Shown: positions 4,178-52,086, numbered from the stretch's first letter. The stretch is DNA of 64,000 nt from Candidatus Berkelbacteria bacterium (GCA_016187225.1 JACPKC010000010.1:156590-220589), one strand, 5' to 3'. The notes: a model not told the origin generated them from the letters alone. Numbers and translations are program-made.

Positions 4178-4393
4178 GTTTTTAGTCCTCCATTGCGATG
4201 CGCCTAGTATAGCGCAGGCGCTTTACAATCACCAAATCAAATCGTAGGCGTGTTTTGTTCTAATTCTTCAACCACCTCATCGTCGATAATTTGAGAAAAT
4301 GACTTCATTTGAAAGACTTTCTCTCTCGTCATTGCAAGAGCTAAAACGACGAAGCAATCTGGAAGGTGTATACTTATAAAATTGGAGGTGACA

Positions 4394-6243: not shown

Positions 6244-6954
6244 GTGGCCCGCAAACGCCAAGCGCAGATCGTTGGATTTTTGATTTTCGTTTTTGTTTTT
6301 AGCGTCAGTGAAGCCTTTGCTCTGTTTTTAAGCAATCGCGTGTTTGTTCAGAACATTAAGATTAACGTTGCCGCTTTCCCTTCGATTAAGGTCTTTGCCT
6401 CTAGCGACACCGCATTTGATCAAGACGATGTCGAAGAAAACTTTGGGAATGTCGATGAAGAGGACGTTAGTTCAAAAGACGGTCAAAATCGACGACTGGC
6501 TTTTCGTTTCGATATCCCTACGCTCCCAACTGGCGTCACTCTGGTAGGTTGCTCGCTGAATCTTTTCATGAACGAGGCGCCTTCGTTTGAAAGCCGTTCT
6601 CATGGCGCGTACCGATTTACTCTCCATGAGAACGAGTGGGGCGAGGGTGCGGGCGGGCCGGATGAAGCCGAGGTTGGCGAAAGTAGTTGGCAGTGGTACG
6701 CTCGGCCCGATGAATGGGCTACGCCTGGTGGTGATATTAGCGACTCACCGATTGCAGTGGCGGCTACTGGTCTCGAGGATGAAGTTTGGCAGGCGTGGGA
6801 CGTCACGGCCGACTGCGCTCCTGGCGAAACCCGCTCTTGGCTCATTCGTGATACCAGCGAAGATGCGCCAATGACAAGAGATGCCGAGTATAACTTGCGT
6901 GAAGACGGCTTCGCTACCGCTCCATATCTTTTACTTACCTACCAGGTGCCCTAA
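6244..6954 (+). CDS. Second putative SipW-cognate secreted protein (unknown function)
   Basis: N-terminus MARKRQAQIVGFLIFVFVFSVSEAFALFLSNRV shares the AxF(T/L)SN cleavage-region motif with the upstream TasA-like protein. It is D/E-rich and has no known catalytic motif. Confidence 0.5.
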   Translation: MARKRQAQIVGFLIFVFVFSVSEAFALFLSNRVFVQNIKINVAAFPSIKVFASSDTAFDQDDVEENFGNVDEEDVSSKDGQNRRLAFRFDIPTLPTGVTLVGCSLNLFMNEAPSFESRSHGAYRFTLHENEWGEGAGGPDEAEVGESSWQWYARPDEWATPGGDISDSPIAVAATGLEDEVWQAWDVTADCAPGETRSWLIRDTSEDAPMTRDAEYNLREDGFATAPYLLLTYQVP

Positions 6955-6960
6955 CGGATT

Positions 6961-7383
6961 CTAGCGCCATCTTCCTTCATCATCGTGATCGTGGCCGACA
7001 AGGTGGCGTACGCCATGCTCAACAAGTTCTAAAAACAATTCTTCAAGCTTTTGACCAAAGCGCGTTGCCTGCCGCCTAACTGTTTCAAGCGAAATAAGAA
7101 TTGTGCCGAGGCACAGTGGAGCTTGAGTGTGATTTGGGACAACCGTACCTCGTTCAACGTCCATTGCCATCGGCAAGGAGAGCACGTCGGTTGGAGCTTG
7201 AATGCCACGGTGTTGATGATTGAGAATCTGCATCTCGCGATCATCCACAATTACAAGCTCTAGAGTTACTTCCGTCAAAAACTGTGCATGTGTCGCTAAA
7301 ACCTCTCGAATTTTTTGCTCAATCAAATGCCGCTTGATCGGAACGGGTAAGTTTTCGATCAAGTCGAGTTCGAGTTTGATCAC
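6961..7383 (-). CDS. ybeY: rRNA maturation endoribonuclease YbeY
   Basis: HGVRHLVGHDHDDEG zinc-binding H..H..GxDH motif. Confidence 0.85.
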   Translation of the reverse strand: MIKLELDLIENLPVPIKRHLIEQKIREVLATHAQFLTEVTLELVIVDDREMQILNHQHRGIQAPTDVLSLPMAMDVERGTVVPNHTQAPLCLGTILISLETVRRQATRFGQKLEELFLELVEHGVRHLVGHDHDDEGRWR

Positions 7384-7823
7384 GAGAGGTGTTTGCGAAC
7401 CATGGCTGAAACTCGACTGCCGCCAGCTCGCCCTTGAAGCCTTGGCATCAAGGCGCTCATTACTTTTCCCAGCTCGGCGGCTGAACGCGCGCCAGTTGCT
7501 TGAATCGTTTCGCTGATGAGACGAGTCAATTCTTCGTCTGAAAGTTCGGTCGGCAAGTAAGCATTTAAAATTGCTAGTTCCGAGCCTTCTTTTTCAGCTA
7601 ATTCGGGCCGATTTCCTTTTTGATATTCGGCTTGTGCCTCCCTGCGTTGTTTGGCTTCTTTTTGTAAGACAGCTAACGCTTCTACGTTGTTCAACTCATG
7701 ACCCAATTCGATCTGCTTGTTTTTAAGCGCGCTTTTGACCATTCGCAAAGTCGAAAGAAGTTCTGGCCTACCAGCCTTAAGCGCTTCTTTGGCATCGCTA
7801 TTAATTTGACTAACTATATTCAT
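7380..7823 (-). CDS. GatB/YqeY domain protein
   Basis: YqeY-like sequence throughout (ALKAGRPELLSTLRMVKSALKNKQIE ... ELGKVM); 147 aa. Confidence 0.8.
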   Translation of the reverse strand: MNIVSQINSDAKEALKAGRPELLSTLRMVKSALKNKQIELGHELNNVEALAVLQKEAKQRREAQAEYQKGNRPELAEKEGSELAILNAYLPTELSDEELTRLISETIQATGARSAAELGKVMSALMPRLQGRAGGSRVSAMVRKHLS

Positions 7824-7826
7824 ATT

Positions 7827-8057
7827 CTAGTATCCTCGGCGCAATCTTTTAGTAACTGCTTTGCGGCGCGCCGAAATGCGTCGCAGACGCCGTGAAAGCT
7901 CTTTAGCATGGTATCGGCGTTTTTTTACTTCTGAAAGGATGCGACTCTGTTGAACCTCGCGAAAAAAACGACGAAGTGTCACTTCAAAAGACGGCCGCCG
8001 CTCGCGCGTTGTGCTAAATTCAGTTCGTGAATCCTGAAAATCAGCCATCACACTCAC
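7827..8057 (-). CDS. rpsU: 30S ribosomal protein S21
   Basis: 76 aa, very basic, SRILSEVKKRRYHAKELSRRLRR pattern typical of bS21. Confidence 0.8.
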   Translation of the reverse strand: MSVMADFQDSRTEFSTTRERRPSFEVTLRRFFREVQQSRILSEVKKRRYHAKELSRRLRRISARRKAVTKRLRRGY

Positions 8058-8103
8058 CTCATTTCTGATGGCCAGAAAACTTTACGGAAAAACAATGCCT
8101 GGA

Positions 8104-8445
8104 CTATACCATGCTTCCCAGTCGATGTCCACCGAGTAAATGCAAATGAATGTGATCAACTACCTGTCCGCCATGCGCGCGGGTATTAAAGACCAAGCGA
8201 TAGCCGTCGCTCGATATCTTCTGTTCATCGGCAATTTTTCGCGCAACGTTGATCATATAGCCAATTAGAGGCTCATGTTCCCTCGTCATTTCCGCTACGC
8301 TCGTGAGATGTATACGGGGAACAATCAGAATGTGTATCGGCGCCTTGGGCGCAATATCATTGAAGGCACTTACGCGCCTATCCTGAAAAATTAATTTAGT
8401 TCCCTCTTTACCGGTGGCAATTTTACAAAAAAGACAGTTTTCCAT
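8104..8445 (-). CDS. HIT family (histidine triad) hydrolase
   Basis: LFCKIATGKE ... DHIHLHLLGG histidine triad motif. Confidence 0.85.
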   Translation of the reverse strand: MENCLFCKIATGKEGTKLIFQDRRVSAFNDIAPKAPIHILIVPRIHLTSVAEMTREHEPLIGYMINVARKIADEQKISSDGYRLVFNTRAHGGQVVDHIHLHLLGGHRLGSMV

Positions 8446-8908
8446 AGAGACTCCTTTTAACTTTATGATTGGCGCGAACGTAATCCGTCCAATGCTTTTT
8501 GAGCCAATTCTCTTGAAATTTTAGCACCGCGCCCAAGCCACGTTTTGCAAGCTCGCGATCGACGACGCCGCCGTGATGAGGGTGTTTGTAAAGTTGTGGT
8601 CGGGGGCTCGAAAACCCATGCGCATAATGAACGAGTTCATGTGCCATCACACCTAAAACGACCTCGTCGGGAATCTTAGGATCTTTGAGGTGGCTCGTAA
8701 TCGTGATAATACTTCGCCGCTCAAGCGCGCCGCTTTGTTGTCGAAGCGGTTTTCTCCCCCACTTAATTGAACCGAGTCGCGTGATGGCTGGCTGACCAAA
8801 TTTAATCACAACGTCATTTGGTTGATCAATATCATCAAAATAGCGATACCATAGCATCGCGAGTTGTTCGGTCAGCCACTCATTGGTGCGCATTGAGAGG
8901 TTTTTCAT
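8423..8908 (-). CDS. SprT-like zinc metallopeptidase domain protein
   Basis: MAHELVHYAHGF...HPHHGG is an HExxH-containing SprT-like core. Confidence 0.5.
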   Translation of the reverse strand: MKNLSMRTNEWLTEQLAMLWYRYFDDIDQPNDVVIKFGQPAITRLGSIKWGRKPLRQQSGALERRSIITITSHLKDPKIPDEVVLGVMAHELVHYAHGFSSPRPQLYKHPHHGGVVDRELAKRGLGAVLKFQENWLKKHWTDYVRANHKVKRSLYGKLSFL

Positions 8909-10805: not shown

Positions 10806-10883
10806 GAGGGAGTTATGTAGTATATAAAACAGTCTTTGTAAGACAATTAACAATTAAATTTTACGAAGGAGAGGTATGCACAG

Positions 10884-12308
10884 ATGCATATTTTTGAGAT
10901 TGAACAGGCAATTCTGGCTAATCAGAAAGTTGTTCGAAAGCATCTTCTATACTGCTGGGAAGATGTTAATGAGACCCTCGACCTTTGTTACGCTCTCGGG
11001 CGCATCTTCTATCGCGGCCTCGATCAGCTCAAGAGATCCGAAAAACGCAATTTTCAGCGTTGTCTTAACGCTATTCGGAAAGCCACGGAGCGGATCGATT
11101 CTGATAAGATGATCGCGATTGCTAACGCGCATAGAGCCTACACCGTTAGGGTCGGCATGAACTTTGCGACCATTTTTTTAGGGTCTGATGCGAATGACTT
11201 CGAGCGATCGGAGAAGATCGTCAGCTTGCTTCATCAGGCAAGGATCAGGACCTACCCTGATGAACTCTCGCTGACAGAACAATACAATGAATTTGCATCT
11301 ATCTTGTCTCTTATTGGCACGTTGATCCATGGCGCCTCGCGAACATGGACAAACTTCTTGCGCTCAGTTGCAAGCGGGTCTCAAACGGCGGGTGCCATTT
11401 TCGATCACATAGTCTTTTTCTATGCTTCGGTTAGGGCAAACGTGAACCTTGTTCACTTGTCTGAATGGCCTTTTCAAACAGCGACTAACATAGAAGAGAC
11501 AATCTTGGTCGCGATCGGCGGTGAGCATGACCCAGTCTTTCTGCCTGTGCCAGATGAGATTATTGATGCAATCAACGGTCGCATCCACGCATTCAATGCG
11601 TGGATTGACAGGCAAAACATTCTCACCCGAGAGTTAGTTGCTTGGTTCCAGACTAAGCGCGACGATTTTCATTCCAAGGAGGAGCAGATGTGGCAGGAGA
11701 TCGTTATGCAACCCAAATATGGCCTGCGACCAGCCGGTCTCGATAAGCTCCGCGTCGATCTAGCAGATAGTTGTGAAACTTATGTACAACTAATTCCGGT
11801 CGGTGATTTTCCTCTGACTCATGTCAAGCTCTGGATGAGATACCGTTACCTTAGGTATTGGTATACGGCGTCCATTATCCTCGATCCAAATAATTGGCAG
11901 GAAGTGGTGTGTTCTGATTGTTCTTGCACACGGGAGGGGGTGCAGGAGATGGATCGGGTGCACAGATTTGTCTGCCTCTACTGTCTGTGGTGGATAGTCA
12001 CAGGCCAGGGTGTGAAGGCGTCAACGTATCATGAAAAAGGAGGTAAGAAGTCGAACGGATTTGGCGTCCCCGCGTCCAAAACACCGATTCGAGCGCATTT
12101 TCGTCGACTGCCTCTTGGCAGGAATCCATCTGAAGCAGCTCAACTTCGTGCGATTGATACGTTAGATGTTTTGCCGCCAATCGGTACGACCTTTGTGCGC
12201 TCTCATCTGCGCAATAATACGCCAACCGAGCAGGAGATTCGCGACTTCGAAAAGATCGAGCCTTTGCCCAATTTTATTTTTTCGTTCAGTAAGTTTGGTT
12301 TCGCTTGA
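10884..12308 (+). CDS. Hypothetical 474-aa protein, Cys-rich (CSDCSCT...CLYC), no recognised domain
   Basis: Long ORF with an RBS (GAAGGAGAGG); ends at a bidirectional terminator. Confidence 0.6.
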   Translation: MHIFEIEQAILANQKVVRKHLLYCWEDVNETLDLCYALGRIFYRGLDQLKRSEKRNFQRCLNAIRKATERIDSDKMIAIANAHRAYTVRVGMNFATIFLGSDANDFERSEKIVSLLHQARIRTYPDELSLTEQYNEFASILSLIGTLIHGASRTWTNFLRSVASGSQTAGAIFDHIVFFYASVRANVNLVHLSEWPFQTATNIEETILVAIGGEHDPVFLPVPDEIIDAINGRIHAFNAWIDRQNILTRELVAWFQTKRDDFHSKEEQMWQEIVMQPKYGLRPAGLDKLRVDLADSCETYVQLIPVGDFPLTHVKLWMRYRYLRYWYTASIILDPNNWQEVVCSDCSCTREGVQEMDRVHRFVCLYCLWWIVTGQGVKASTYHEKGGKKSNGFGVPASKTPIRAHFRRLPLGRNPSEAAQLRAIDTLDVLPPIGTTFVRSHLRNNTPTEQEIRDFEKIEPLPNFIFSFSKFGFA

Positions 12309-12331
12309 GCTAGCGGAGACCAAAATGATGC

Positions 12332-12360
12332 AAACGACCGCCCAGGCGGTCGTTTTAAAA
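12332..12360. terminator. Bidirectional terminator between convergent genes
   Basis: Perfect AAACGACCGCC-CAG-GGCGGTCGTTT hairpin with T/A-rich flanks on both sides. Confidence 0.75.
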
Positions 12361-12362
12361 AT

Positions 12363-13544
12363 TTAATTTATCGTTCCTGATAGGTTTGCATCACCCGTTG
12401 CGGTTAGCGGTGGAGTTTCGGTGTGTGTCACCGATGTGCCGGGCGGAATCACCTCAAACCAAGTCTTGCCCTTGATGAGCGTTAACTCATTGCCGTTGCT
12501 ATCGTACAAACGTAACATCTCGTCGGTGCTGGATTTTTTCCACTTGCCTTCAGTTGCAGTGCCATTTTGAATGAGCGTTGACTTCCCCTCTCCTTCTGTG
12601 GTCATAAACCATTCGCCTTTGCCCTGATTTGTTTTAGCGTCGTAGACGCGCTCCACTTCGATGACAGCGATGTTTTTGGCTGTAATTTGATCGCCCGTAA
12701 CACGATCAATGTGCGCCGCACCCGCAAGTGAACGTTTATAGATGTTCTCTTCGCGCTCATAGACCCACTCCGCTTTGTAAGAAGGTGTTGAAAAATCAAT
12801 AGCAAGGGTTGCCGTGGCCGCTCGTTGCTCACTTGCGATATCGTCAGCAAATTTAAGCGGCGTGAACTCGCTTTCTAGTTTCACTTCTTTTTCTTTGGCG
12901 AATTCATAGAGCTTGGCGCTTGAGGTGAAGAGCGTATGTTCAACCGCGATGCCTGGTTTTGGTTCGCGTTCAAAATAAGCGGCTGTATGGGGTAAATCAA
13001 CGATCGCCGGTGTCTTAGGAATTAGGGCCAGCGCCGCTTGCGATCCGCCTGCATGCGTATACAGCGCTTTGTAACCAGCGGCATAGTGGACAAAGTACGG
13101 TCGAGCCGATCTTACAGGTCCGATTTTTTGCGCATCGGCTGGACCAAAAATTGCCATAAAACGTGTGATGCCGCCTTCCACAATCACCTCGAAAACAACA
13201 CTCGCATCGATCAGCCCAGCTTGTGGGCGCGCGTCGGGGTGATTCTCAATCATCACTGCCAGGGGCCGAATTTTGGCCTTACTGGGATCAACTTCAGTCC
13301 CATCTAAAGTTGATGGTTCGGTTTTGGGTACTTCCTTAACTGAAAGATTTGGCAAGATCGAGTTATTCGCGGATTGAAGATTAAATCCTTCGGGTACGAA
13401 ATATCGATAATAAGCAGCCGTGCCCGCCGCACCAAATACAATTATGAATAGGCTGATTATGAGGGTTGCGTGTCCGCGCCGGCTATTTATAAAACGCACA
13501 AGACGTTCGCGAAAATTACCCTTCTCGAGATTAAGTGTCTCCAT
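12363..13544 (-). CDS. DUF3048 (YerB-like) secreted or membrane-anchored protein
   Basis: RPLAVMIENHPDARPQAGL...VVFEVIVEGGITRFMAIF matches the DUF3048 N-terminal core. The start is chosen at METLN (RBS AGGAAG); the ORF track extends to 13601. Confidence 0.65.
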   Translation of the reverse strand: METLNLEKGNFRERLVRFINSRRGHATLIISLFIIVFGAAGTAAYYRYFVPEGFNLQSANNSILPNLSVKEVPKTEPSTLDGTEVDPSKAKIRPLAVMIENHPDARPQAGLIDASVVFEVIVEGGITRFMAIFGPADAQKIGPVRSARPYFVHYAAGYKALYTHAGGSQAALALIPKTPAIVDLPHTAAYFEREPKPGIAVEHTLFTSSAKLYEFAKEKEVKLESEFTPLKFADDIASEQRAATATLAIDFSTPSYKAEWVYEREENIYKRSLAGAAHIDRVTGDQITAKNIAVIEVERVYDAKTNQGKGEWFMTTEGEGKSTLIQNGTATEGKWKKSSTDEMLRLYDSNGNELTLIKGKTWFEVIPPGTSVTHTETPPLTATGDANLSGTIN

Positions 13545-43045: not shown

Positions 43046-43750
43046 ATGCTACAACTGCGTGGTCAGACGGGGTGGGATGTAACCGCTTTCATTCTTCAGA
43101 CTGTCCTCACGTTATTGACTGGAGGCATCTTGGTCGCCCAAGCAAATGGCTATGACATTGATTTTCGAACCCTTGCCGTTGAGAAGACAGGGCTTTTAGT
43201 GTTAGATGTTCAGCCAGCTTCTGCTCAGGTTTTTGTGGATGAACAAGAGCTTTTTGAACGGAATGGCGAACGTGTTCGCCAGCTTCTGCCGGGTCCGGTT
43301 AGGATCCAGGTCACAAATGCAGACTACATATCCTGGAATCATTTCGCGGTTATTGATTCGGGGCTGACAAAAGTTTTTTCTAAGGTGAGACTTTTTTTTA
43401 AAGAACCGCTCATAATTAGAACACGCTCGGTGACGAAAAACGAATTTTTATCTCCATTCATTGATTCATCTCTGCGTCTTGATCAGGGAGAAATTTGGCG
43501 AATTCAAGGTGAGACAGCGCGCCTTATTACTCGCCTGTCCAGACCAATTTTAAGCGCGACGATGCTCGATGAGGGCCACGTTGTTTTTCAAATTGAGCGA
43601 GAAATCCACATTCTTGATCTTGATGGCAGTAATGACATCAATCTTTTAACACTTGAATCTGATCGTGCGATACAACTAATTAGTCTGTATGGTGGCAATG
43701 TATTGGGCGTGCTTTCGGAAGGCATTTTAACTGAATATCAAATCAGTTAA
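43046..43750 (+). CDS. Hypothetical membrane-anchored protein
   Basis: N-terminal TM helix followed by a beta-rich region; no confident domain. Confidence 0.45.
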   Translation: MLQLRGQTGWDVTAFILQTVLTLLTGGILVAQANGYDIDFRTLAVEKTGLLVLDVQPASAQVFVDEQELFERNGERVRQLLPGPVRIQVTNADYISWNHFAVIDSGLTKVFSKVRLFFKEPLIIRTRSVTKNEFLSPFIDSSLRLDQGEIWRIQGETARLITRLSRPILSATMLDEGHVVFQIEREIHILDLDGSNDINLLTLESDRAIQLISLYGGNVLGVLSEGILTEYQIS

Positions 43751-44510
43751 TCAGATATATATCTGTGAGACTTGCATAAACTATTAGACGGTTCAAAGTT
43801 GTACCGACTGGCGTACATGTCATCAGAGCGAGTTGGTTTTGTGTCAGAGTTTCGTCCCGCACAACTCGAACTTCCGTTGGCCTTACAACCTCGCTCCCAG
43901 TGACACGATAACGATAGATTTTCTCGTCTTTGCGCACAAAAACTTCGTCACTTGGAGCAAGACGGTCCAGTACGCTAAATACTTTTGTCCAAGGATTACG
44001 ATTCCACCAGTATCCTGAAGAATGGCCAATGATAAATGTTCGTCCAATCTCCCCCGGCAGGACTGATTCACTCGTCTGGACGACACCTTTTTGTAAGCCG
44101 TTTAGTGACTCGACAAGCGGTATTTGCCACTCAATCGGCGCCCTTACTTCGATTGTCGGAATGAGGAGGGTATTATCTTCTAATGTTGGGATGATGTGAT
44201 CGACCGAATAATTTAAGAATGACGATGGGCTTAACCATTCGCTCCCTTCACTGTTTGTAGCTTGAACTAAATCTTTTACAACAAAACGCAAGCGTTCCAA
44301 CTGCGCCGGGCCAGATAGAACCAGGAAGACTATACTCGCAATTCCGACCCCATAAAGAAGTTGTTTAAAGCCATGAAAAAACAGCCGCTTGCGCCGGCTA
44401 CATTCAAAATGCCTCTGAACGTTTAGAGCCTCATTGAAGGTGATAAAACTTTGCATTTTTTGACTCAAAAACACCACACTATACCTGATATAATCTTCCA
44501 TGTCAATCAA
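43743..44510 (-). CDS. Sortase-like transpeptidase 1 (type II membrane topology)
   Basis: N-terminal TM. Catalytic triad context: FIIGHSSGYW (His), ALMTCTP (the TLxTC Cys), NRLIVYA (Arg). Confidence 0.7.
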   Translation of the reverse strand: MIDMEDYIRYSVVFLSQKMQSFITFNEALNVQRHFECSRRKRLFFHGFKQLLYGVGIASIVFLVLSGPAQLERLRFVVKDLVQATNSEGSEWLSPSSFLNYSVDHIIPTLEDNTLLIPTIEVRAPIEWQIPLVESLNGLQKGVVQTSESVLPGEIGRTFIIGHSSGYWWNRNPWTKVFSVLDRLAPSDEVFVRKDEKIYRYRVTGSEVVRPTEVRVVRDETLTQNQLALMTCTPVGTTLNRLIVYASLTDIYLIN

Positions 44511-44708
44511 TAGGTATTATTCATTTTACACAGAGCACTTGACAGAGAGTGAGGATTTACGAGAAAAGAAAATATATCTAACTTGACAAGATCTACGGAC
44601 GTGCTAGTGTCAAACATACGAAGAAAACCGGCAAAAAAGTCTGAATTCTACTTACGAACGTTGAGAGATTAAAACAAATCAACAAATAAGCAAGTTTGGG
44701 AGGTAGGC

Positions 44709-45689
44709 ATGAGGCAAGACGCAACTAGAGCGATTGAACCGCACCAAGGTATCAGAGAACTCATGCGTGGTCTAGCTGTCACGTTTTACATTGCCTCATT
44801 AGTCTTATCACCGGTATCGGCCTTAGCGCTCGAAGGTGATCTGGCGAACACAGAAACTGGCTCCAACTCGACCAATGCAAATGACATTGATCAGGACACA
44901 ACGATTTCATTCAATATTCGCAATGAGGGCGATGCAGATACTGATTTGGATTTTAATTTTAATACTGGCGGCAATACAGTGGTTGATAATACGACCGTCG
45001 GCGATATAACTACCGGTGACATCGAAGTTGAGGCCGAAGTTGAAACGGAGATCAATACCCAGCAAGTCGATCTATCAGAATTAGTTGAGGAATTAAATCA
45101 CCTCGGTGAAGTGAATATCGCATCAACTAACGAACAAACCGGCGCCTCAAGTACCAATGTCAATACAACATCGACAACTAACACAGTCAGCGTAGCTGAA
45201 ACGAACACAGCCAATTCTACAACCAATGTGGTCCTAGCGCTTAACACTGGCGGCAATACAGTTAGTCATAATACGACCGTTGGAGATATAACTACCGGCA
45301 ATATTATTGCCTCTTTGACAGTTAGTAATCGTCTCAATGTTCCCAGTGAAGAACCATCCGTATCGTCAGCAACTCCCACTGGCGGTGGCATGATGCCGAC
45401 AACATCTCCTGCCTCTTCTTCTGCTCCTTCTCAAATCCAGCCAATAACCAGCTCAAACTTACCCGCGGCATTGCCTCAAATTGCTCAAGCCGCCCCAGTT
45501 TCATCTCAAAAGCAATTAGCCACCGAACGTCAAGAATTTTTTCCAGCAGGCGCAAGCGGATCATTGTTGACACTCTTGTTACTTGCGAGTTTTGCTTTAA
45601 TTTCTGTTTATGCGCCCGAACTCATTAACCTCATGGCGCGCCAGAAACATTTTTTGCATCGCTTAAGCGCTGTCTTGCCACTCCTCTAA
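44709..45689 (+). CDS. Secreted modular repeat protein 1 (two units of about 70 aa) with a C-terminal TM anchor
   Basis: RBS GGGAGG. The N-terminus after an N-region is a signal/anchor (FYIASLVLSPVSALA). Two units end in NTGGNTVxxNTTVGDITTGDI. The C-terminus has a hydrophobic helix and a basic tail. Confidence 0.7.
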   Translation: MRQDATRAIEPHQGIRELMRGLAVTFYIASLVLSPVSALALEGDLANTETGSNSTNANDIDQDTTISFNIRNEGDADTDLDFNFNTGGNTVVDNTTVGDITTGDIEVEAEVETEINTQQVDLSELVEELNHLGEVNIASTNEQTGASSTNVNTTSTTNTVSVAETNTANSTTNVVLALNTGGNTVSHNTTVGDITTGNIIASLTVSNRLNVPSEEPSVSSATPTGGGMMPTTSPASSSAPSQIQPITSSNLPAALPQIAQAAPVSSQKQLATERQEFFPAGASGSLLTLLLLASFALISVYAPELINLMARQKHFLHRLSAVLPLL

Positions 45690-45786
45690 TATCTTTGAGG
45701 TCGATACTTTTTCGCTCTCGTATGCGGCGCAAAAGTCATAAACAAGCATACTCCTACAAGTTAAAATATATGGGAAAGGAGTTTTT

Positions 45787-46656
45787 ATGAAACTCAATCT
45801 CATTTCCGCACGTAACCGCATGCGGGTAATGGCTGCAGTTGCGGCAGTTGCCCTCATGAGTGGTGCTGGTTCAGCCTGGGCAGACGTTGACCTAAGCGCT
45901 GGCAACGACATCACAGGACCAGATTCGGTTAATCGCAACGACTTCGACATCACTGACGATCTCGATTTAGATATCGACAATGATGCTGACGCTGACAACG
46001 ACATCGATCTCGATGCCGACAGTGGCGATAACACCATCGATAGCAACACCACGGTTGGTGATTTCGAGGGTGGCGATATTGAAGTTGAAGGCGAATTTGT
46101 GACCGAGCTCAACACGGGTGAAGTTATGCTTGGGGATATGGAACTCGGTGATGTTGATGCTGATTTCAGCAACGATACCACCGGTCCTAACTCCGACAAC
46201 CGCAATACACTCGATATCGATCGCACTGCTGATATTGATGTCGATAATGATGCCGACATCGACAACGACTTTGACGTTGATGTTGATACCGGTGGCAACG
46301 ACATTACTAACAACACAACGGTTGGTGATATCGAAACCGGTGACTTTGAGATGGAACTAACCGTCGAGAACACCGCGAATATGGGTGCGTCACAGGTGAC
46401 GTTGCCAAGTATGGGCGACCAGGATGTCGATGCTGATTTCAGCAACGATACCACCGGCCCTAACTCTGTTAATCGCAACACGCTCGATGTGGACAACACA
46501 TTGAATGTTGATGTCGATAACGATGCCGATGTTGACAATGACCTAGATGTTGATGTCGACAGCGGTGATAACACCGTTGATTCGAACACAACTGTTGGTG
46601 ATATTACAACCGGCGACGTGTCAATTAACTTCAGCTTCACCAATATTTTGAACTAA
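45787..46656 (+). CDS. Secreted modular repeat protein 2 (three D/N-rich units), no C-terminal anchor
   Basis: RBS GAAAGGAG. Signal peptide MKLNLISARNRMRVMAAVAAVALMSGAGSAWA. Three units of TGPNSxNRN...(D/T)(S/T)G(D/G)N(T/D)(I/V)xxNTTVGD(F/I)x(T/G)GD. Confidence 0.7.
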   Translation: MKLNLISARNRMRVMAAVAAVALMSGAGSAWADVDLSAGNDITGPDSVNRNDFDITDDLDLDIDNDADADNDIDLDADSGDNTIDSNTTVGDFEGGDIEVEGEFVTELNTGEVMLGDMELGDVDADFSNDTTGPNSDNRNTLDIDRTADIDVDNDADIDNDFDVDVDTGGNDITNNTTVGDIETGDFEMELTVENTANMGASQVTLPSMGDQDVDADFSNDTTGPNSVNRNTLDVDNTLNVDVDNDADVDNDLDVDVDSGDNTVDSNTTVGDITTGDVSINFSFTNILN

Positions 46657-46735
46657 AATAAAGGAAGTTCGAAGTTTGTGTAGGCTCGAGGAAGTTGCTT
46701 CCTCGGCCTCACAAATATCGAAGCGGGGAGAATAT

Positions 46736-48856
46736 ATGCACAAATCCAGATTTAAGAAATTCCGGCGAGTCTTTGCAATTTCTATGGTCGGACTCATTTT
46801 GAGTTTTTCTTCAATCGCGCCCGCCCTTGCGGTTGGGCCAATCGGACCAGTTGGTCCACAAGGCCCAGTGGGGCCCCAGGGTCAGGTTGGTCCACAAACC
46901 CCAGTTGGCCCCCAAGGCTCTATCGGTCCTCAACCAGTCACAGAACAAGGTCCAGCTTCAACATCAACAGCCGAACCATCAGTGATTTCAAATGAACCAC
47001 CAGTTGCACAACTCACTAATAACTCGAACGTAATAGAGCCAGGCGTTCAAACTTCCACTCCGCTTGAACCAGTCGCACCAATCGAGTCGACCAGCGCTTC
47101 AGCCGACCCGGCGATTGAAGGCACGCAAGTCAGCGCCGGCGAACTTACGAATGAGCAAACTGGCTCGAACTCGGAGAATTCAAATGCCGTCGGTGTCACA
47201 AATTCGGCAATGGTTGAAACGACAAATTCGGCCACAGTCGGCAATAATCTTAATTTAGATGCGGCGACCGGCGATAACGAAGTTACGAGCAATACCATGG
47301 TCGGAAGTTTCACGACTGGTGATATTCAAGGTTCGATTAACATCATCAACGCTACGAATTCAGAATTTGCCCCTGGCAGTACCGTGGGTGTTGGCGAGAT
47401 CACAACAAATGCAAGTGGTGATGTTTTCTTGCTTGATGGAGTGGATCGGTTATATTTACCAAGCAACAATGAAACTGGAGTGAATTCAGCTAATACAAAC
47501 GTTATTAATGACACGAACGTGGTACGTATAATTACAGATAATAATGCCGACATTGATAATGTTATCGATATTAGTGCCGATACCGGCAATAATACGCTCA
47601 CCAGCAACACAGTGCTCGGCGATATTGCGACCGGCACGATCGACCTTTCATTGAACATCATCAATTTACTTAACCTACTTATGCCGGACACGCTTTTTTC
47701 GCTCGACCTTTGGTCAATTTTTGGCGACCTTGCGAGTGATATTATTCTCCCCATGGTCAATGAACTCACCGGCGTAAATTCGGAAAATACAAATTCTGCT
47801 ATCCAAAATACAACTGTCGATGTTACCCTGGCGAATAACGCTCAAATCGATAATATCTTCGACATTCAAACCGAGACAGGCAATAACGCACTCGCCAGCA
47901 ATAGTACTGTCGGAAACATCGAAACCGGCGGCACGCGGATCGAGGGTGGAGTTACAAATATTGCTAACAGCGCCAATCCGACACTTTATCTCTTTAATGT
48001 TTTGGGTGACTGGACTGGGAGCGCTCTCGGATTGCCAGGCGGTAATTTTATTGTGAATGAACTTTCCAGCCTACTAACGGGTCCTAATTCGCTCAATGAG
48101 AATACTGCCCAGCAAACAAATGATGTTTTAGTTGACGTAACCAATACCGCCAACGTTTCCAACCAGCTTTCTTTGAACGCAAATACCGGCGCTAACACGG
48201 TTGAGCGAAATTCAAAAGTTGGCAATATTAAAACCGGCGATATTAATGTCATGGCGAATGTGGTCAATTTCCTTAATTCGTTTGGGAGTGATCTTAAAAA
48301 GTTTTCTCTCAAGGTTGTGAATATTTTTGGAAACTGGAATGGCACCGCGAAATCAACGCCCGATCCAGAAATTCAAACTGCAAGCGCTCTCGCATCGCCA
48401 GAGAACATCGATAATCAGTCATCGCAAAATTCAAACACTGCCGATGTGTGGGTTACACAACCAGTCGCCGCAACTTCAATAGAGATTTCACAAGCATCAT
48501 CAAATTCTACCGGTGAAAACAATCTATCGGAAACTGTGATAGCTAGTGTTGCCGAAGATCAGTCGCCTGAAATGCCAAGTTCGCCAGTTCAAGTTGCAAG
48601 CGCGAATGAAAATACAAGACTTGCGTTTGTTGAGCAAAAACAGAATTCTAATGACGAATCGAGATTATCTGAAGATGCTACACCCGAAGAAAATCTCACT
48701 AAAATTGCTTCAGCTCACATTGAACAACCTGTCTTGGTTGGGGCTGAAAAGAATAAAATAAATTGGCAACTGATACTAGTCTTAAGTCTACTTAGCTTCT
48801 TCGCTTTAATCTGGGGTTCTCTTGAGATTGCCGCCGTTAAATCAATTCGTCGTTAA
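46736..48856 (+). CDS. Large surface protein 3: signal peptide, collagen-like GXY tract, at least four units of about 70 aa, and a C-terminal TM anchor with a KSIRR tail
   Basis: Start at MHKSRFKK with RBS GGGGAGA. GPIGPVGPQGPVGPQGQVGPQ...GPQGSIGPQ. Units TG(S/V/P)NSxNxN...TGxNxxxxNTxxGxxxTGD. The C-terminus is WQLILVLSLLSFFALIWGSL followed by EIAAVKSIRR. Confidence 0.7.
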   Translation: MHKSRFKKFRRVFAISMVGLILSFSSIAPALAVGPIGPVGPQGPVGPQGQVGPQTPVGPQGSIGPQPVTEQGPASTSTAEPSVISNEPPVAQLTNNSNVIEPGVQTSTPLEPVAPIESTSASADPAIEGTQVSAGELTNEQTGSNSENSNAVGVTNSAMVETTNSATVGNNLNLDAATGDNEVTSNTMVGSFTTGDIQGSINIINATNSEFAPGSTVGVGEITTNASGDVFLLDGVDRLYLPSNNETGVNSANTNVINDTNVVRIITDNNADIDNVIDISADTGNNTLTSNTVLGDIATGTIDLSLNIINLLNLLMPDTLFSLDLWSIFGDLASDIILPMVNELTGVNSENTNSAIQNTTVDVTLANNAQIDNIFDIQTETGNNALASNSTVGNIETGGTRIEGGVTNIANSANPTLYLFNVLGDWTGSALGLPGGNFIVNELSSLLTGPNSLNENTAQQTNDVLVDVTNTANVSNQLSLNANTGANTVERNSKVGNIKTGDINVMANVVNFLNSFGSDLKKFSLKVVNIFGNWNGTAKSTPDPEIQTASALASPENIDNQSSQNSNTADVWVTQPVAATSIEISQASSNSTGENNLSETVIASVAEDQSPEMPSSPVQVASANENTRLAFVEQKQNSNDESRLSEDATPEENLTKIASAHIEQPVLVGAEKNKINWQLILVLSLLSFFALIWGSLEIAAVKSIRR
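46835..46933 (+). repeat. Collagen-like Gly-X-Y triplet tract (about 10 triplets, one interruption) inside protein 3
   Basis: In-frame translation of GGNCCN-rich DNA gives GPI GPV GPQ GPV GPQ GQV GPQ (TPV) GPQ GSI GPQ. Confidence 0.7.
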
Positions 48857-49448
48857 ATTCCTACGTTCGATTCTAGCTTTTTCGCTTTTGTTATTATTTT
48901 GGTACGCGCCGCTCATTTTTTCACTTACTCAACCGACCCTGATTGAAGCTGGTGTACTAGGTAAGAGGATTGCTGAAGCGCCGGTCGCTGACACTTTTAG
49001 ATACGAAAATTTAGGGATTGAGGTTCCAATCGAAAAGGCCGCCTGGACATCACCCTTAAATACAAAAGATTGGCGTAAAATTCGCTCGGCGCTCGAACGG
49101 GGCGTAAGTTTGGCATATGAGGGCGAGTTTTTGGAGAGTGTTACCCTTGCCTTTATTACCGGTCACTCGAGCGATGTCTATCCACACAGATATAGTTCCG
49201 TTTTTGCCAGCCTTGGCCAAGCGCAAAGAGACGATAATTTTACCTTGTGGCTTAATCAAAATCCCTACCAGTTTAAAGTTACTGGGGTCAAAATTATTTC
49301 ACCCCAGGATGTTGAAGAGTTTCAGGCCCTGAATCCGGGAGAGAAATCAGACATCCAACGAGTTGCTCTGGTAACTTGCTGGCCGGTCTTGACAACTCGC
49401 TCAAGACTCGTTGTGATTGGAGAACGCAGTTTGAGAGGTAGCTTATGA
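48822..49448 (+). CDS. Sortase-like transpeptidase 2
   Basis: N-terminal TM; AFITGHSSDVY (His), ALVTCWP (Cys), TRSRLVV (Arg). It overlaps the end of protein 3 by 35 nt and the start of the subtilisin gene by 4 nt. Confidence 0.65.
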   Translation: MRLPPLNQFVVKFLRSILAFSLLLLFWYAPLIFSLTQPTLIEAGVLGKRIAEAPVADTFRYENLGIEVPIEKAAWTSPLNTKDWRKIRSALERGVSLAYEGEFLESVTLAFITGHSSDVYPHRYSSVFASLGQAQRDDNFTLWLNQNPYQFKVTGVKIISPQDVEEFQALNPGEKSDIQRVALVTCWPVLTTRSRLVVIGERSLRGSL

Positions 49449-50602
49449 ATAGTTATAAAATTTTTATTACTGGTCTAGCATTGTTGATTTGGTTTAGTAT
49501 TAGCTTGCCTGCAGAAGCAAGTCAAACGCGGGTTCAGGTTGGCGAACGCAAAGTTGTAAAATGTAAAATTTCGCTTGACAAGTGCGCCAACGAACTTCGT
49601 TCACAAGGTGTGCTTGTAAAGAGAAAACTTTCGTTTATTCAAGGCGTGGCGGCGAATTTGAATAGTGAAAGCGAGGCGAAACTTATAGCCACTGGTGTGA
49701 TTCAGAACGCTGACCCAGATATTGAGATTTCTGCTTTAAGCCATCGCGACCAGGCTCAAATTCTAACCTGGAACATTGCCCGAATCCAAGCCGATCGAGC
49801 ACAGGCAAAGAGTACTGGATTAGGTATTGATGTGGCGGTGATTGATACAGGTATCGATCTCGATCACCCGGATTTAATTGGTAGAATTAAGGGCGGTATC
49901 AACCTCATAAATCCTTGGGCCAACGCTGATGACGATAATGGTCATGGCACACATGTTGCTGGAATTATAGCGGCGGAAAATAACGGTTTTGGCGTTCTCG
50001 GTGTTGCTCCGAAGAGCAACTTATACGCAGTTAAAGCTCTTGATCGGCGTGGCCGTGGCTATCTTTCAGATATTCTTGCTGGCATGGAATGGGCGCTCAA
50101 TTCCGGGATTGAGGTGATCAACTTGAGTCTTGGAACGCCGGTTAGCATTCCCACACTTCAGGAGGCCACAACTCGGCTGGTGCAGACTGGGATTGTAGTT
50201 GTTGCGGCGGCTGGCAACGACGGCGCCGCCGTGAATTATCCAGCGGCGTATCCAGGCGTAATTGCTGTTGGCGCAGTCGGTGATGAGGACGAATTACAAC
50301 GTTGGTCATCACATGGATCCGCGCTCGATGTTGTTGCTCCAGGCGATCATATTTATTCCACTTATCGAAGAGATCGGTATCGAACCATGAGCGGAACATC
50401 GATGGCAACCCCTCATGTTGCCGGACTTGCAAGCTTACTTCTTGCTTACCCGTCAGCTTGCGACCAAAATAGCGATAATCAGTGTTCGGCTGAAGAAGTT
50501 GCCGCTCGGATTTTTGCAACGGCAGACAATTTAGATACACCTGGCTACGATTTGACTACTGGTTATGGCGTGATTAATTCAGCTCGAGCCCTAGGACTTT
50601 AG
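49445..50602 (+). CDS. Secreted subtilisin-like serine protease (S8)
   Basis: Triad motifs VIDTGID (Asp), HGTHVAGIIAA (His), GTSMATPHVAG (Ser); signal peptide. Confidence 0.85.
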   Translation: MNSYKIFITGLALLIWFSISLPAEASQTRVQVGERKVVKCKISLDKCANELRSQGVLVKRKLSFIQGVAANLNSESEAKLIATGVIQNADPDIEISALSHRDQAQILTWNIARIQADRAQAKSTGLGIDVAVIDTGIDLDHPDLIGRIKGGINLINPWANADDDNGHGTHVAGIIAAENNGFGVLGVAPKSNLYAVKALDRRGRGYLSDILAGMEWALNSGIEVINLSLGTPVSIPTLQEATTRLVQTGIVVVAAAGNDGAAVNYPAAYPGVIAVGAVGDEDELQRWSSHGSALDVVAPGDHIYSTYRRDRYRTMSGTSMATPHVAGLASLLLAYPSACDQNSDNQCSAEEVAARIFATADNLDTPGYDLTTGYGVINSARALGL

Positions 50603-50647
50603 AACTCATTGTTTGTCCTATTAAAGCCTGTTAATATAGCAGGCGGT

Positions 50648-50734
50648 GCCGCGGTGGCGGAACCGGCAGACGCGCTGGACTCAAAATCCAGTGATCGCAA
50701 GATCGTGTGGGTTCGACTCCCACCCGCGGCACCA
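50648..50734 (+). tRNA. tRNA-Leu (anticodon CAA), class II long variable arm, encoded CCA
   Basis: Acceptor GCCGCGG/CCGCGGC. Anticodon stem-loop CTGGA-CTCAAAA-TCCAG. T-arm GGGTTCGACTCCCAC. Discriminator A, then CCA. Confidence 0.8.
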
Positions 50735-50808: not shown

Positions 50809-51285
50809 TTACATCTGGTCGATGCCGGTTGCAAATTGACGTTTATTGTCCCCTACGCTTTCAATTAAGAAGTAACCCAAGCGTGGCGCGGCCGATGCTT
50901 TTTTACTGAATTCGGCATTAGCATTTCCGCTTTCGTTAGTTGAAAAATTACCGATTGACACTTTGGTGCCATTGTAAATGTTATTGCCATCCGGATTCGC
51001 GCCAGTATTCTTGAGACTAATGAAGAAAAGCTTATAAGTTTTCTCTGCAGAGGCACCCTCAAGGTGAACGTCAATTTCATCCTCTGTCACCGATACTTGT
51101 CCTTCCTGCAGAGGATCAGTACCTTTTTTAACGGCATTACTGCCGCAATCGTTACCGCTTTTAGTATCAGCACAGCGAATGAGGTCGCTTTCCATCGAAT
51201 GCCATTCGGAAGCAATTGCGTAGACAGCGCTCGCCGAAAGAGTTAATAAGACAAGTGTTAGAATTACTAATTTCCATGATTTCAT
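50809..51285 (-). CDS. Hypothetical secreted protein
   Basis: AGGAGGTGA RBS and ATG at 51285 (MKSWKLVILTLVLL signal peptide); no recognised domain. Confidence 0.5.
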   Translation of the reverse strand: MKSWKLVILTLVLLTLSASAVYAIASEWHSMESDLIRCADTKSGNDCGSNAVKKGTDPLQEGQVSVTEDEIDVHLEGASAEKTYKLFFISLKNTGANPDGNNIYNGTKVSIGNFSTNESGNANAEFSKKASAAPRLGYFLIESVGDNKRQFATGIDQM

Positions 51286-51349
51286 TTCACTCACCTCCTC
51301 TCTACATTGAATATATTTAAAACAGATGGGATTGTAAATTATTCAATTA

Positions 51350-52010: not shown

Positions 52011-52086
52011 GGGCCGTTAGCTCAGCTGGTAGAGCGCAGCATTCGCATTGCTGAGGTCGGGAGTTCGATTCTCCCACGGTCCACCA
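52011..52086 (+). tRNA. tRNA-Ala (anticodon CGC), G3:U70 identity pair, encoded CCA
   Basis: GGGCCGTTAGCTCAGCTGGTAGAGC D-arm; anticodon loop TTCGCAT; T-arm GGGAGTTCGATTCTCCC; acceptor 3-prime ACGGTCC-A-CCA. Confidence 0.85.

Follow-up and report, generated by a model that had tools for sequence, protein, structure and literature searches.

Gene content of the locus

The locus considered here belongs to an uncultivated Candidatus Berkelbacteria MAG (CPR/Patescibacteria) and was analysed within a 64-kb window, i.e., the whole stretch of DNA under study, from whose first base all positions are counted. The first-pass annotation had laid it out as a sortase gene, three repeat-protein genes, a second sortase gene and a subtilisin gene ending at a tRNA-Leu, and every one of these features was found where it had been placed:

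43743..44456, minus strand: srt1, sortase; likely ATG start at 44456, the ORF reaching a TTG at 44510
44457..44708, no strand: divergent srt1/rep1 intergenic region, with a GGGAGG ribosome-binding site before the rep1 ATG
44709..45689, plus strand: rep1; signal peptide, 2 units, linker, FFPAG, hydrophobic helix, basic tail
45787..46656, plus strand: rep2; signal peptide (NCBI start 45820), then 3 units only
46736..48856, plus strand: rep3; signal peptide, 4 units, C-terminal helix; ORF extending upstream to a TTG at 46676
48822..49448, plus strand: srt2, cassette-type sortase; TTG start inside the 3′ end of rep3
49445..50602, plus strand: S8 peptidase, secreted, subtilisin-family; start overlapping the srt2 stop by 4 bases
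50648..50734, plus strand: tRNA-Leu (CAA), called by ARAGORN

The tRNA gene is a boundary marker of the locus and stands outside the system. Two gene pairs, rep3/srt2 and srt2/S8, overlap, as in an operon structure, and a promoter-like site (a consensus match only, with 11/12 matches) lies upstream of srt1 at 44506-44478 on the minus strand. The catalytic motifs of the three enzymes are as follows:

43779-43793, minus strand: srt1 Arg motif NRLIV, catalytic Arg
43809-43823, minus strand: srt1 Cys motif MTCTP, catalytic Cys
44016-44027, minus strand: srt1 His motif GHSS
49161-49172, plus strand: srt2 His motif GHSS
49371-49385, plus strand: srt2 Cys motif VTCWP, catalytic Cys
49401-49415, plus strand: srt2 Arg motif SRLVV, catalytic Arg
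49838-49852, plus strand: S8 Asp motif VIDTG
49943-49963, plus strand: S8 His motif HGTHVAG
50393-50413, plus strand: S8 Ser motif GTSMATP

The two enzymes initially described as sortase-like, each with an N-terminal anchor (a membrane anchor in srt1), exceed the 26.6-bit cut-off of Pfam Sortase PF04203 (peptidase C60), srt1 with 80.2 bits (1.4e-22) and srt2 with 46.1 bits (5.2e-12). Their catalytic residues are kept on alignment: His, Cys and Arg of srt1 are in register with the class C sortase 8t28, and those of srt2, which is 28% identical to srt1, align with the srt1 residues. Both proteins score under every class cut-off of the NCBIfam sortase models (A-F and GN). Class C is the best NCBIfam and PDB match for either enzyme, with NCBIfam scores of 54.6 for srt1 and 43.1 for srt2 against a cut-off of 160; for class E, the scores are 53.9 and 18.5 (cut-off 160), and the remaining classes are lower. 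Reading the two sortase sequences directly reveals no DP(F/W/Y) lid motif.

The secreted S8 protease expected after the second sortase matches Pfam Peptidase_S8 PF00082 (203.3 bits, 6.6e-60, cut-off 21.8) and bears the Asp, His and Ser motifs. Mycosin, its best NCBIfam match, was rejected as an identity at 203 bits versus a cut-off of 278.75. Of 39 loci, 8 have a linked S8 gene, all of them in the syntenic clade except for one Daviesbacteria locus, a distribution that lends little support to the maturase role first proposed for the protease; membership of the S8 peptidase in the system is uncertain.

The repeat module and its family

A unit profile places nine repeat units in the three paralogous proteins (2 + 3 + 4 in rep1, rep2 and rep3), the number originally counted, with a length of about 75 aa and not the roughly 70 aa of the first estimate. 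Twelve columns are invariant over all nine units (T7, G8, S11, N13, N15, N29, G44, N46, N51, G55, G60 and N73). The units and other elements of the proteins are distributed as follows:

44838-45062 and 45120-45344, plus strand: rep1 repeat units (unit profile)
45537-45551, plus strand: rep1 FFPAG, after a P/S/T/G-rich linker and before the helix
45561-45611, plus strand: rep1 hydrophobic helix, then a basic conserved tail
45895-46119, 46162-46386 and 46435-46653, plus strand: rep2 repeat units (unit profile)
46832-46933, plus strand: rep3 GPx (collagen-like) tract, about 10 GPx triplets, with a disordered linker after it
47141-47365, 47456-47680, 47750-47974 and 48059-48283, plus strand: rep3 repeat units, each with an extra hydrophobic strand
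48728-48745, plus strand: rep3 PVLVGA, after a low-complexity linker of about 130 aa
48764-48838, plus strand: rep3 C-terminal helix with conserved W..E, then KSIRR

The profile gives no further match among the other ORFs of the window, and the repeat has no match in Pfam, NCBIfam or PDB sequences, in agreement with the earlier opinion that it is not a described family. Among protein clusters, the profile finds 1758 representatives (E<=1e-3), and other Berkelbacteria-like MAGs are syntenic at the locus; chance is thus ruled out as the source of the locus. Members are spread over Patescibacteria, from Berkelbacteria, Saccharimonadia-labelled MAGs, Daviesbacteria and Microgenomates to Andersenbacteria and Woesebacteria, so that the family is not lineage-specific, as had been supposed. 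Its recurrent architectures comprise 3 units (~290 aa), 4 units (~600-700 aa) or 2 units (~310 aa). The conserved core is a pair of adjacent genes: the first encodes a secreted protein of units only and the second, directly downstream, a 4-unit protein whose C-terminus forms a helix followed by a basic tail. This gene pairing is found in nearly all loci, including distant sortase-free ones. That the two genes keep so strictly together in very distantly related lineages speaks for their products being physical partners.

At our locus, the units-only member is rep2, which is 100% identical to ‘hypothetical protein HYW32_03810 [Candidatus Berkelbacteria bacterium]’. Correctly recognised from the start as having a signal peptide only, it ends exactly at its last unit and lacks an anchor, and 90 3-unit proteins in the sampled family set likewise stop at the last unit. 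Mature rep2 contains 24.5% Asp, 0 Lys and 0 Cys. As rep2 has neither of the latter two residues nor an anchor, any retention of it must be non-covalent, and without a sorting signal or a lysine it could be neither an acyl donor nor a lysine acceptor.

The module is predicted to be all-beta. In the AF2 model of rep3, the units are all-beta with pLDDT values of 80-98, and the pTM of 0.56, reached despite 41% of residues at pLDDT below 50, suggests that the four units form one body. Modelled alone, rep2 yields low confidence (pLDDT 51). The rep3 protein scores 16.9 bits against Pfam Collagen PF01391, under the cut-off of 27.2; a precomputed PF01391 match exists for one homologue, P0013.

C-terminal signals and adjacent sortases

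The C-termini of rep1 and rep3 both consist of a hydrophobic helix and a basic tail, as first described, and the canonical pentapeptides LPXTG, LAXTG and NPQTN are absent from all three rep proteins. The earlier reading that no LPXTG or LAXTG is visible therefore stands but overlooked a conserved FFPAG before the rep1 helix, which is kept in orthologues. A 17-aa hydrophobic stretch starts 3 residues past this motif and is followed by an R/K/H tail. Of the 160 anchored family members, 13 have the pattern [FLY]F[PA]AG just ahead of the helix, versus 0.01 in shuffles, and a hybrid FFPTG occupies the signal position in a member from locus L040. At the same position, other members bear LPVTG, LPSTG, LPLSG, LPEAG, LPDSG, LPITG or LPRAG, with 6 LPXTG-like signals observed versus 0.51 in shuffles. 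In locus L041, NPKTG precedes the helix of a rep3-type protein, and a sortase gene lies downstream. As a sorting signal, FFPAG/FFPTG, with Pro as the third residue and Ala/Thr-Gly as the last two, was found in none of the searched libraries or literature. Judged by its sequence, rep1 is a candidate wall-anchored sortase substrate. Anchoring differs among family members, which possess LPXTG-like signals, FFPAG, a helix only, dockerin-like C-termini (L017/L018) or no anchor.

No recognisable pentapeptide adjoins the rep3 helix, and for this reason the translational coupling of srt2 with rep3 does not mark rep3 as a substrate. A sortase gene directly downstream of the 4-unit gene (the srt2 orthologues) is present in 16 of 36 assessable loci and an adjacent sortase is absent from 20. 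All loci with a 2-unit FFPAG-type gene have the downstream sortase (12/12), versus none of the complete loci that lack this gene (0/7). The sortase thus tracks protein 1 but not protein 3, and an adjacent sortase is missing at about half of the related loci. The cassette rep1-rep2-rep3-sortase recurs in three unrelated genomic contexts, in most cases with one sortase only. Together with the 12/12 versus 0/7 distribution and the LPXTG-like signals of homologues, this recurrence bears out the proposed tie between the secreted surface proteins and a sortase. The recurrence of the cassette in Patescibacteria and the absence of FFPAG from every searched library and paper point to an undescribed cell-surface assembly.

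Proposed assembly and its alternatives

The interpretation that we prefer, with confidence a little short of even, is an undescribed, Patescibacteria-wide surface assembly that depends on sortase, is built of stacking modules resembling a beta-solenoid and comprises wall-anchored, membrane-anchored and free subunits. It retains the secreted, sortase-tied and undescribed repeat of the first-pass annotation but abandons its lineage-specific and exosporium-like elements; nothing speaks for an exosporium-like structure beyond the short GPx tract.

The proteins rep1, rep2 and rep3 would be exported by Sec. The C-terminal FFPAG, helix and basic tail of rep1 would be cut by a dedicated sortase, probably between A and G, and the cut protein would be linked to peptidoglycan. 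The candidate enzyme is srt2, which is of the cassette type, with srt1 as a clade-specific second copy adjoining rep1. With its four modules on long disordered stalks, rep3 would be kept in the membrane via the conserved C-terminal helix or, alternatively, sorted via a signal not yet recognised. Released rep2 would be held non-covalently at the surface. Its modules would pack edge-to-edge, in a solenoid-like manner, on those of the anchored proteins, to which they are homologous, and would either cap them or grow into a longer fibre or stack. Trimming or shedding of components may fall to the S8 protease, whose gene is co-transcribed. That FFPAG is cleaved, that rep1 is attached to the wall and that the modules stack or polymerise is what we infer from the locus and its relatives, as is the role of the protease. 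In a more specific version, possible but doubtful, each unit would be a flat cross-beta solenoid layer, and the free subunit would stack by templating on an FFPAG-anchored nucleator and a membrane-anchored four-layer base to give a functional-amyloid-like fibre or ribbon.

The same proteins could instead form a non-polymerising coat of independent adhesins or S-layer-like proteins, with rep1 wall-anchored, rep3 membrane-anchored and rep2 soluble, the module being a ligand-binding or lattice-forming beta-solenoid. Anchoring as varied as that of this family is typical of modular adhesins, and in rep1 and rep3 the long disordered stalks are similar to the parts of Gram-positive surface proteins that span the wall. 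A coat of this kind is nevertheless unlikely, if far from negligible, given the strict adjacency of an unanchored units-only paralogue and an anchored 4-unit protein in very distant lineages, the reduction of rep2 to nothing but units and a signal peptide, and the poor model of rep2 alone as against the high confidence of the rep3 units with their extra strand.

It is improbable that the sortases and the protease are housekeeping neighbours acting on other substrates, with retention by the helix only and FFPAG as a structural or juxtamembrane element. The 20 of 36 related loci without an adjacent sortase and the conserved W/E residues of the rep3 helix, suggestive of a permanent anchor, would suit this explanation, and sortase is common in CPR genomes generally (PMC6744442). 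However, the sortase tracks the FFPAG-type gene and stays with the cassette in three unrelated contexts, the rep1 signal is arranged like a standard sortase signal, its short motif preceding a helix and a basic tail, and FFPTG, LPXTG-like and NPKTG variants occupy its position in homologues. Very unlikely is a mineral-, calcium- or ice-binding beta-solenoid in which the very acidic rep2 would bind cations or prevent scaling at the surface: homologues do not conserve the Asp richness, many of them being N/T/S-rich at the corresponding positions, the RTX and antifreeze matches lie close to noise, and no RTX or other calcium-binding family was matched in Pfam or NCBIfam.

A classical covalent pilus, i.e., an LPXTG-to-lysine isopeptide polymer made by a pilus sortase, with a second sortase attaching the shaft to the wall, is largely refuted by sequence and is the least credible reading of all, since despite the pilus-island-like layout of three structural genes flanked by two sortases and the class C best matches, rep2 lacks both a lysine and a sorting signal, Pfam and NCBIfam give no match to a CnaA/CnaB, pilin-motif or E-box family, the class C scores are far under the cut-off, the lid motif is not visible and most cassettes have a single sortase. 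The SpaA/RrgB-type pili share with our locus several structural genes flanked by sortases and Sec-exported proteins that terminate in a helix and a basic tail, but differ from it in their CnaA/CnaB domains, pilin-motif lysine, class C sortases and a central subunit with a sorting signal.

The preferred assembly of anchored and free modules finds a parallel in the chaplins of Streptomyces, where the long ChpA-C are wall-anchored via LAXTG by class E sortases, the short ChpD-H are secreted, and members with a signal peptide only assemble on wall-anchored paralogues of the same small module. By analogy, both systems would combine paralogues of one module, some with a sortase signal and some unanchored, with dedicated sortases. 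The rep proteins have no chaplin Pfam match, though; their module is about 75 aa and N/T/G-rich, in contrast to the hydrophobic chaplin module of about 40 aa, the signal is FFPAG and not LAXTG, the host belongs to CPR, and a third, 4-module, membrane-helix-anchored protein is the most conserved partner. Next to the functional amyloids Fap (FapC) and curli (CsgA/CsgB), the module stands apart in that its repeat exceeds theirs three- to fourfold in length, and as the cell is monoderm-like, there is no CsgG/FapF-type outer-membrane secretion; sortase linkage is not known in curli or Fap. Homology to curli was rejected by hhalign (0.25% probability for the unit profile versus E. coli CsgA), and the Pfam search of the rep proteins gave no Curlin_rpt match. 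The assembly is analogous to chaplins or curli and homologous to neither.

As in the non-LPXTG pairs (SrtB/NPQTN-NPKTG, class D LPXTA, class E LAXTG and class GN ‘marine’), the sortase adjoins its probable sole substrate with a variant pentapeptide, and the SrtB-type NPKTG is used in the related locus L041; unlike in these pairs, the signal FFPAG/FFPTG is absent from the searched libraries and literature, and the sortases are under all class cut-offs. The Pam pilins of Ca. Mycosynbacter amalyticus are Ig-like, two-domain and cysteine-containing, and assemble by donor-strand exchange with chaperone-like partners and no sortase (bioRxiv 10.64898/2026.03.03.709456). They share with the rep proteins a signal peptide, an extracellular structural role, restriction to CPR and the lack of an earlier annotation, whereas the rep proteins are cysteine-free, built of repeats and predicted to have another fold.

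If the amyloid-like fibre exists, it would be a widespread and hitherto unrecognised surface organelle of CPR/Patescibacteria, could correspond to a filament or surface-layer structure seen on ultra-small cells, and might serve host contact. FFPAG/FFPTG, if indeed a sorting signal, would represent a new sortase recognition motif together with a new sortase subclass.

Layout of the locus and its enzymes

The arrangement proposed in the first-pass annotation, in which a sortase, three repeat proteins, a second sortase and an S8 (subtilisin-family) peptidase are followed by tRNA-Leu, has been located in full from the ORFs, a tRNA search and Pfam.

Features of the locus (window positions)
43743-44456 (ORF to 44510), − strand: srt1, sortase (Pfam, 80.2 bits against a cut-off of 26.6)
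44709-45689, + strand: rep1, repeat protein with 2 units
45787-46656, + strand: rep2, repeat protein with 3 units
46736-48856, + strand: rep3, repeat protein with 4 units
48822-49448, after rep3: srt2, sortase (Pfam, 46.1 bits against a cut-off of 26.6)
49445-50602, after srt2: S8 peptidase (subtilase; Pfam, 203 bits)
50648-50734, after the S8 gene: tRNA-Leu(CAA)

Both srt1 and srt2 are members of the sortase family by Pfam, and the catalytic residues claimed for them are present in each, with His (GHSS), Cys (TC[TW]P) and Arg in register in an alignment at 28% identity. Neither protein reaches the cut-offs of the NCBIfam class models; a class C sortase structure also aligns with srt1. MurA and MreB are encoded in the window as well.

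Convergent to srt1, at 43046-43750 (+), lies the gene of a 234-aa protein that has a membrane helix at its N-terminus and matches neither Pfam nor NCBIfam; the two 3′ ends overlap by 8 bases. All syntenic relatives keep this protein beside srt1 (E 1e-34 to 1e-47), and it is absent from non-syntenic cassettes of the L025/L027 type (L numbers denote related loci in other genomes); since it is restricted to the syntenic clade, it is probably not a member of the system. A 326-aa antisense ORF at 45663-46643 (−) spans the whole of rep2, and comparable shadow ORFs lie opposite rep3; with their S/T/L/P-rich translations, they look like artefacts of repeat composition and not genes. Just beyond tRNA-Leu, a 161-aa secreted protein with a signal peptide and no family match is encoded at 50809-51294 (−), and a second tRNA, tRNA-Ala(CGC), is found at 52011-52086 (+), 3′ of a Sua5/YrdC-like gene.

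The repeat family and its predicted fold

The nine repeat units counted at first reading were recovered, 2, 3 and 4 of them in rep1, rep2 and rep3, respectively, as modules of about 75 residues with invariant columns (n = 12) T7, G8, S11, N13, N15, N29, G44, N46, N51, G55, G60 and N73. The view that the repeat stands outside described families was borne out when a profile was built and searched: PDB sequences gave no match, and Pfam and NCBIfam scans of rep1-rep3, ten long relatives and the LPXTG-bearing members matched no family, with Collagen, ClfB and DUF2393 among the sub-threshold noise. The precomputed Pfam domains of the returned homologues are limited to one collagen match, and within the 64-kb window the unit profile picks out no ORF besides these three. 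An entry with 100% identity to rep2 goes by the name 'hypothetical protein HYW32_03810 [Candidatus Berkelbacteria bacterium]'.

Among 1.84 billion cluster representatives (clusters at 50% identity), the unit profile retrieved 1758 proteins at E ≤ 1e-3 and 214 at ≤ 1e-30. Recurrent architectures are about 290 aa with 3 units, about 600-700 aa with 4 units and about 310 aa with 2 units, while some members have 5-10 units. The named sources are almost all Patescibacteria (Berkelbacteria, Saccharibacteria/Saccharimonadales-labelled MAGs, Daviesbacteria, Microgenomates, Andersenbacteria, Woesebacteria), a few partial matches carry a Dehalococcoidia label, and the family seems to be largely restricted to Patescibacteria. 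The earlier description of the structure as lineage-specific has to be given up, because homologues occur in many Patescibacteria lineages beyond Berkelbacteria.

In two 6-unit members of about 1080-1100 aa (L017, 2467-5697; L018, 7599-10892), C-terminal dockerin-like repeats (GD(V/I)N.D.KVDIYD...) replace the membrane helix, which suggests cohesin-dockerin-type attachment in some lineages of CPR (Patescibacteria). In L002, a series of short ORFs (49-97 aa; 6412-8050) is situated 5′ of the 4-unit gene, with a weak match to the unit profile at 7349-7639 (E 0.0018), and may represent a decayed or frameshifted units-only gene.

The question of whether the unit forms a beta-helix or beta-roll was addressed by structure prediction; rep2 alone was modelled poorly. 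The AlphaFold2 model of rep3, with 85 homologues as input, contains four all-beta units (pLDDT 80-98) separated by disordered linkers, and each unit comprises one long strand segment of 21-31 residues and three or four shorter ones. With 41% of the chain at pLDDT <50, the model still reaches a pTM of 0.56, which we take to mean that the four units would pack as one body. The predicted fold class is beta-solenoid-like, without a close solved relative, and a Foldseek search against the PDB returned nothing significant. The model of rep2 alone (pLDDT 51) has the same strand pattern as rep3, and it was dropped from the fold search because of its low quality. A conserved extra hydrophobic strand (SFxGxxNIxGxLxGD / VNVFGxWxG) sets the rep3 units apart from those of rep2.

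The cassette in related loci and the candidate sorting signals

Gene neighbourhoods were compared in 39 distinct related loci (search query, a 26-sequence alignment), 36 of them assessable for a downstream sortase. Their most conserved feature is a secreted units-only gene immediately 5′ of a 4-unit gene ending in a helix and a basic tail. This pair is kept even in distant Saccharimonadia-like loci; there, the units-only partner is a protein of about 195 aa with 2 units, and a helix-anchored paralogue with 1 unit is added. In 16 of the 36 assessable loci, a sortase gene directly follows the last unit gene. Three unrelated genomic contexts, and L040 as well, contain the complete cassette (2-unit anchored, units-only, 4-unit anchored, sortase).

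Genomic contexts of the full cassette
Window type, with divergent srt1 and S8: L001, L004-L008, L026
GAF-kinase ... RmuC: L025, L028
Peptidase_M73/LTD ... Agd3: L027, L029

Synteny with L001 (GCA_016198525.1, a Berkelbacteria MAG) is complete, running from GT4-MreB-MurA across the locus as far as Sua5-HAD-PGI-enolase; linkage of S8 is found in 8/39 loci, namely in the syntenic clade and one Daviesbacteria locus. A downstream sortase is present in 12/12 loci with a 2-unit first gene and in 0/7 complete loci with only 3-unit and 4-unit genes; thus, the cassette sortase tracks the rep1-type gene.

Other genes recur in the vicinity. Many loci, the window not among them, encode a small protein (130-155 aa) with an N-terminal anchor, divergently and just 5′ of the repeat genes; it has a conserved C-terminal region ('...HGPE(D/N).MYINR...(F/Y)(Y/F)EDMR.DSK(I/V)N') and may be a further partner of the system. 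A PucR/CdaR-type protein (HTH_30; C-terminus '...HRNT(V/I)IYRLNQI...') recurs beside the repeat gene pair in sortase-less loci and is a candidate for its dedicated regulator.

Recurrent neighbours of the repeat genes
L009: small anchored protein 7064-7525 (−); PucR/CdaR-type regulator 10920-12101
L011: small anchored protein 7014-7481 (−); regulator 10888-12021
L013: small anchored protein 3843-4238 (−); regulator 7345-8508 (−)
L014: small anchored protein 7258-7665 (−); regulator 11853-12971
L015: small anchored protein 7231-7647 (−); regulator 10874-12040 (−)
L025: small anchored protein 6283-6708 (−)
L028: small anchored protein 6272-6709 (−); regulator 1-717

Directly 5′ of the cassette in L027 (2964-6193) and L029 (1581-4912), a Peptidase_M73 (TasA/camelysin-family) gene is accompanied by two genes for LTD-domain proteins, one with a faint S26 signal-peptidase match; these genes may form a second, TasA-like surface fibre locus.

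As first described, rep1 and rep3 end in a hydrophobic helix with a basic tail; rep2 was found to stop exactly at its last unit. The search for a conserved C-terminal pentapeptide across orthologues, advised at the same time, yielded FFPAG in rep1-type proteins (45537-45551 in the window). In rep1 orthologues, (E/Q/K)FFPAG(A/T/S/G) is strongly conserved and followed at once by the hydrophobic helix and basic tail, with LFPAG, LFAAG and YFAAG as variants; among anchored family members, an FFPAG-type motif adjoins the helix in 13/160 (0.01 in shuffles). No NCBIfam sorting-signal model matches FFPAG, and no mention of it was found in the available literature; it is most simply read as a putative variant pentapeptide, which the hybrid EFFPTGSS of L040 would link to the T-G of LPXTG.

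At the same position, other members bear LPVTG, LPSTG, LPLSG (twice), LPEAG and LPDSG, and near-canonical signals are found in L019 (LPITG), L016 and L043 (LPRAG), L039 (LPKTG) and L034 (LPEAG). LPXTG-like motifs were observed 6 times against 0.51 in shuffles, which argues, at the sequence level, that the repeat family is a genuine sortase-substrate family in several lineages. The window rep3 has no recognisable pentapeptide beside its helix, and because this helix bears the family-conserved residues W..E..A.R, it is suggested to be a permanent membrane anchor. Judging from rep3 orthologues with LPDSG, LPEAG or NPKTG, the same position can probably serve as a sortase site; in L041, NPKTG precedes the helix of a rep3-type protein, and a sortase gene follows.

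A V-L-(G/T/S)-A element is located 15-35 residues upstream of the helix in 46/85 rep3 homologues (3.6 in shuffles), its window counterpart, PVLVGA (48728-48745), being just 6 residues from the rep3 helix. As a sortase motif it has been ruled out, since the homologues P0359 and P0201, and also L040, have it together with true LPXTG-like motifs. It is thus a separate element; it might be a processing site or the site of a protease, perhaps S8. The cytoplasmic tail of rep1 (window about 45650-45686) is unusually long and conserved (...YAPELL...R...LYR.(S/A)A.LP(L/I/V)L-COOH) and is shared by the orthologues P0226, P0337-P0341 and P0334; more elaborate than a generic basic tail, it hints at a specific recognition step.

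Possible assembly and its significance

Signal peptides with AxA sites are visible in rep1, rep2 and rep3, all of which would be exported by Sec. From cleavage onward, the steps are inferred as follows. The cassette sortase would cut rep1 between A and G of the motif (FFPA/G) and join it to peptidoglycan. rep3 would stay membrane-held on a low-complexity stalk of about 130 residues, its distal N-terminus bearing a short GPx tract. rep2 (24.5% Asp) contains neither lysine nor cysteine and lacks an anchor, so its retention could only be non-covalent; most plausibly, its units would pack edge to edge against their homologues in rep1 and rep3, either capping them or forming a growing stack.

Of the alternatives, independent adhesins or an S-layer-like coat are the most probable, though this reading is rather unlikely. 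That the sortases are accidental neighbours of the repeat genes is improbable and is contradicted by their 12/12 versus 0/7 distribution. A cation- or ice-binding role of the module, to which only its acidity (not conserved) and near-noise matches point, is highly doubtful, and a classical covalent pilus is the least probable of all: rep2 contains no lysine and carries no sorting signal, and the Pfam/NCBIfam scans gave no pilin domain.

The Pam pili of Ca. Mycosynbacter amalyticus, also a CPR system, are unrelated, and identity with them was rejected, since the preprint (bioRxiv 10.64898/2026.03.03.709456) describes a different, Ig-like, non-sortase system based on donor-strand exchange. The proposed non-covalent assembly is similar in logic to the chaplins, with their sortase-anchored long forms and secreted short forms, and to CsgB/CsgA, but without homology to either; profile comparison of the unit with CsgA revealed no relationship, and none of the structural proteins proved to be a pilin, curlin or collagen.

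A large part of bacterial diversity belongs to the CPR bacteria, which live in attachment to other cells. To our knowledge, next to nothing has been described of their surface structures beyond type IV pili and the recent Pam pili. More than half of CPR genomes encode a sortase, and the passage on sortases in the paper reporting this names no substrates (Méheust et al. 2019, PMC6744442). In the literature searched, no described CPR sortase substrates were found, nor anything relevant on beta-solenoids in Patescibacteria. The locus is a real, conserved and largely uncharacterised system, in which the repeat family and the candidate sorting motif are new, while sortase-dependent surface display or assembly is of a known kind. 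A large Patescibacteria repeat family (1758 clusters at 50% identity), whose multi-paralogue cassette is conserved, is now on record, along with a candidate sortase-substrate pair with an FFPAG/FFPTG signal, for which peptides (KQEFFPAGASG, the FFPTG variant, HIEQPVLVGAEKN) make in vitro testing possible, and a hypothesis of non-covalent beta-solenoid assembly on wall- and membrane-anchored bases. Some MAGs with a Saccharibacteria or Saccharimonadales label contain homologues, and there are Saccharibacteria in culture that are amenable to genetics; should these strains carry the family too, the idea would be open to knockout and cryo-ET.
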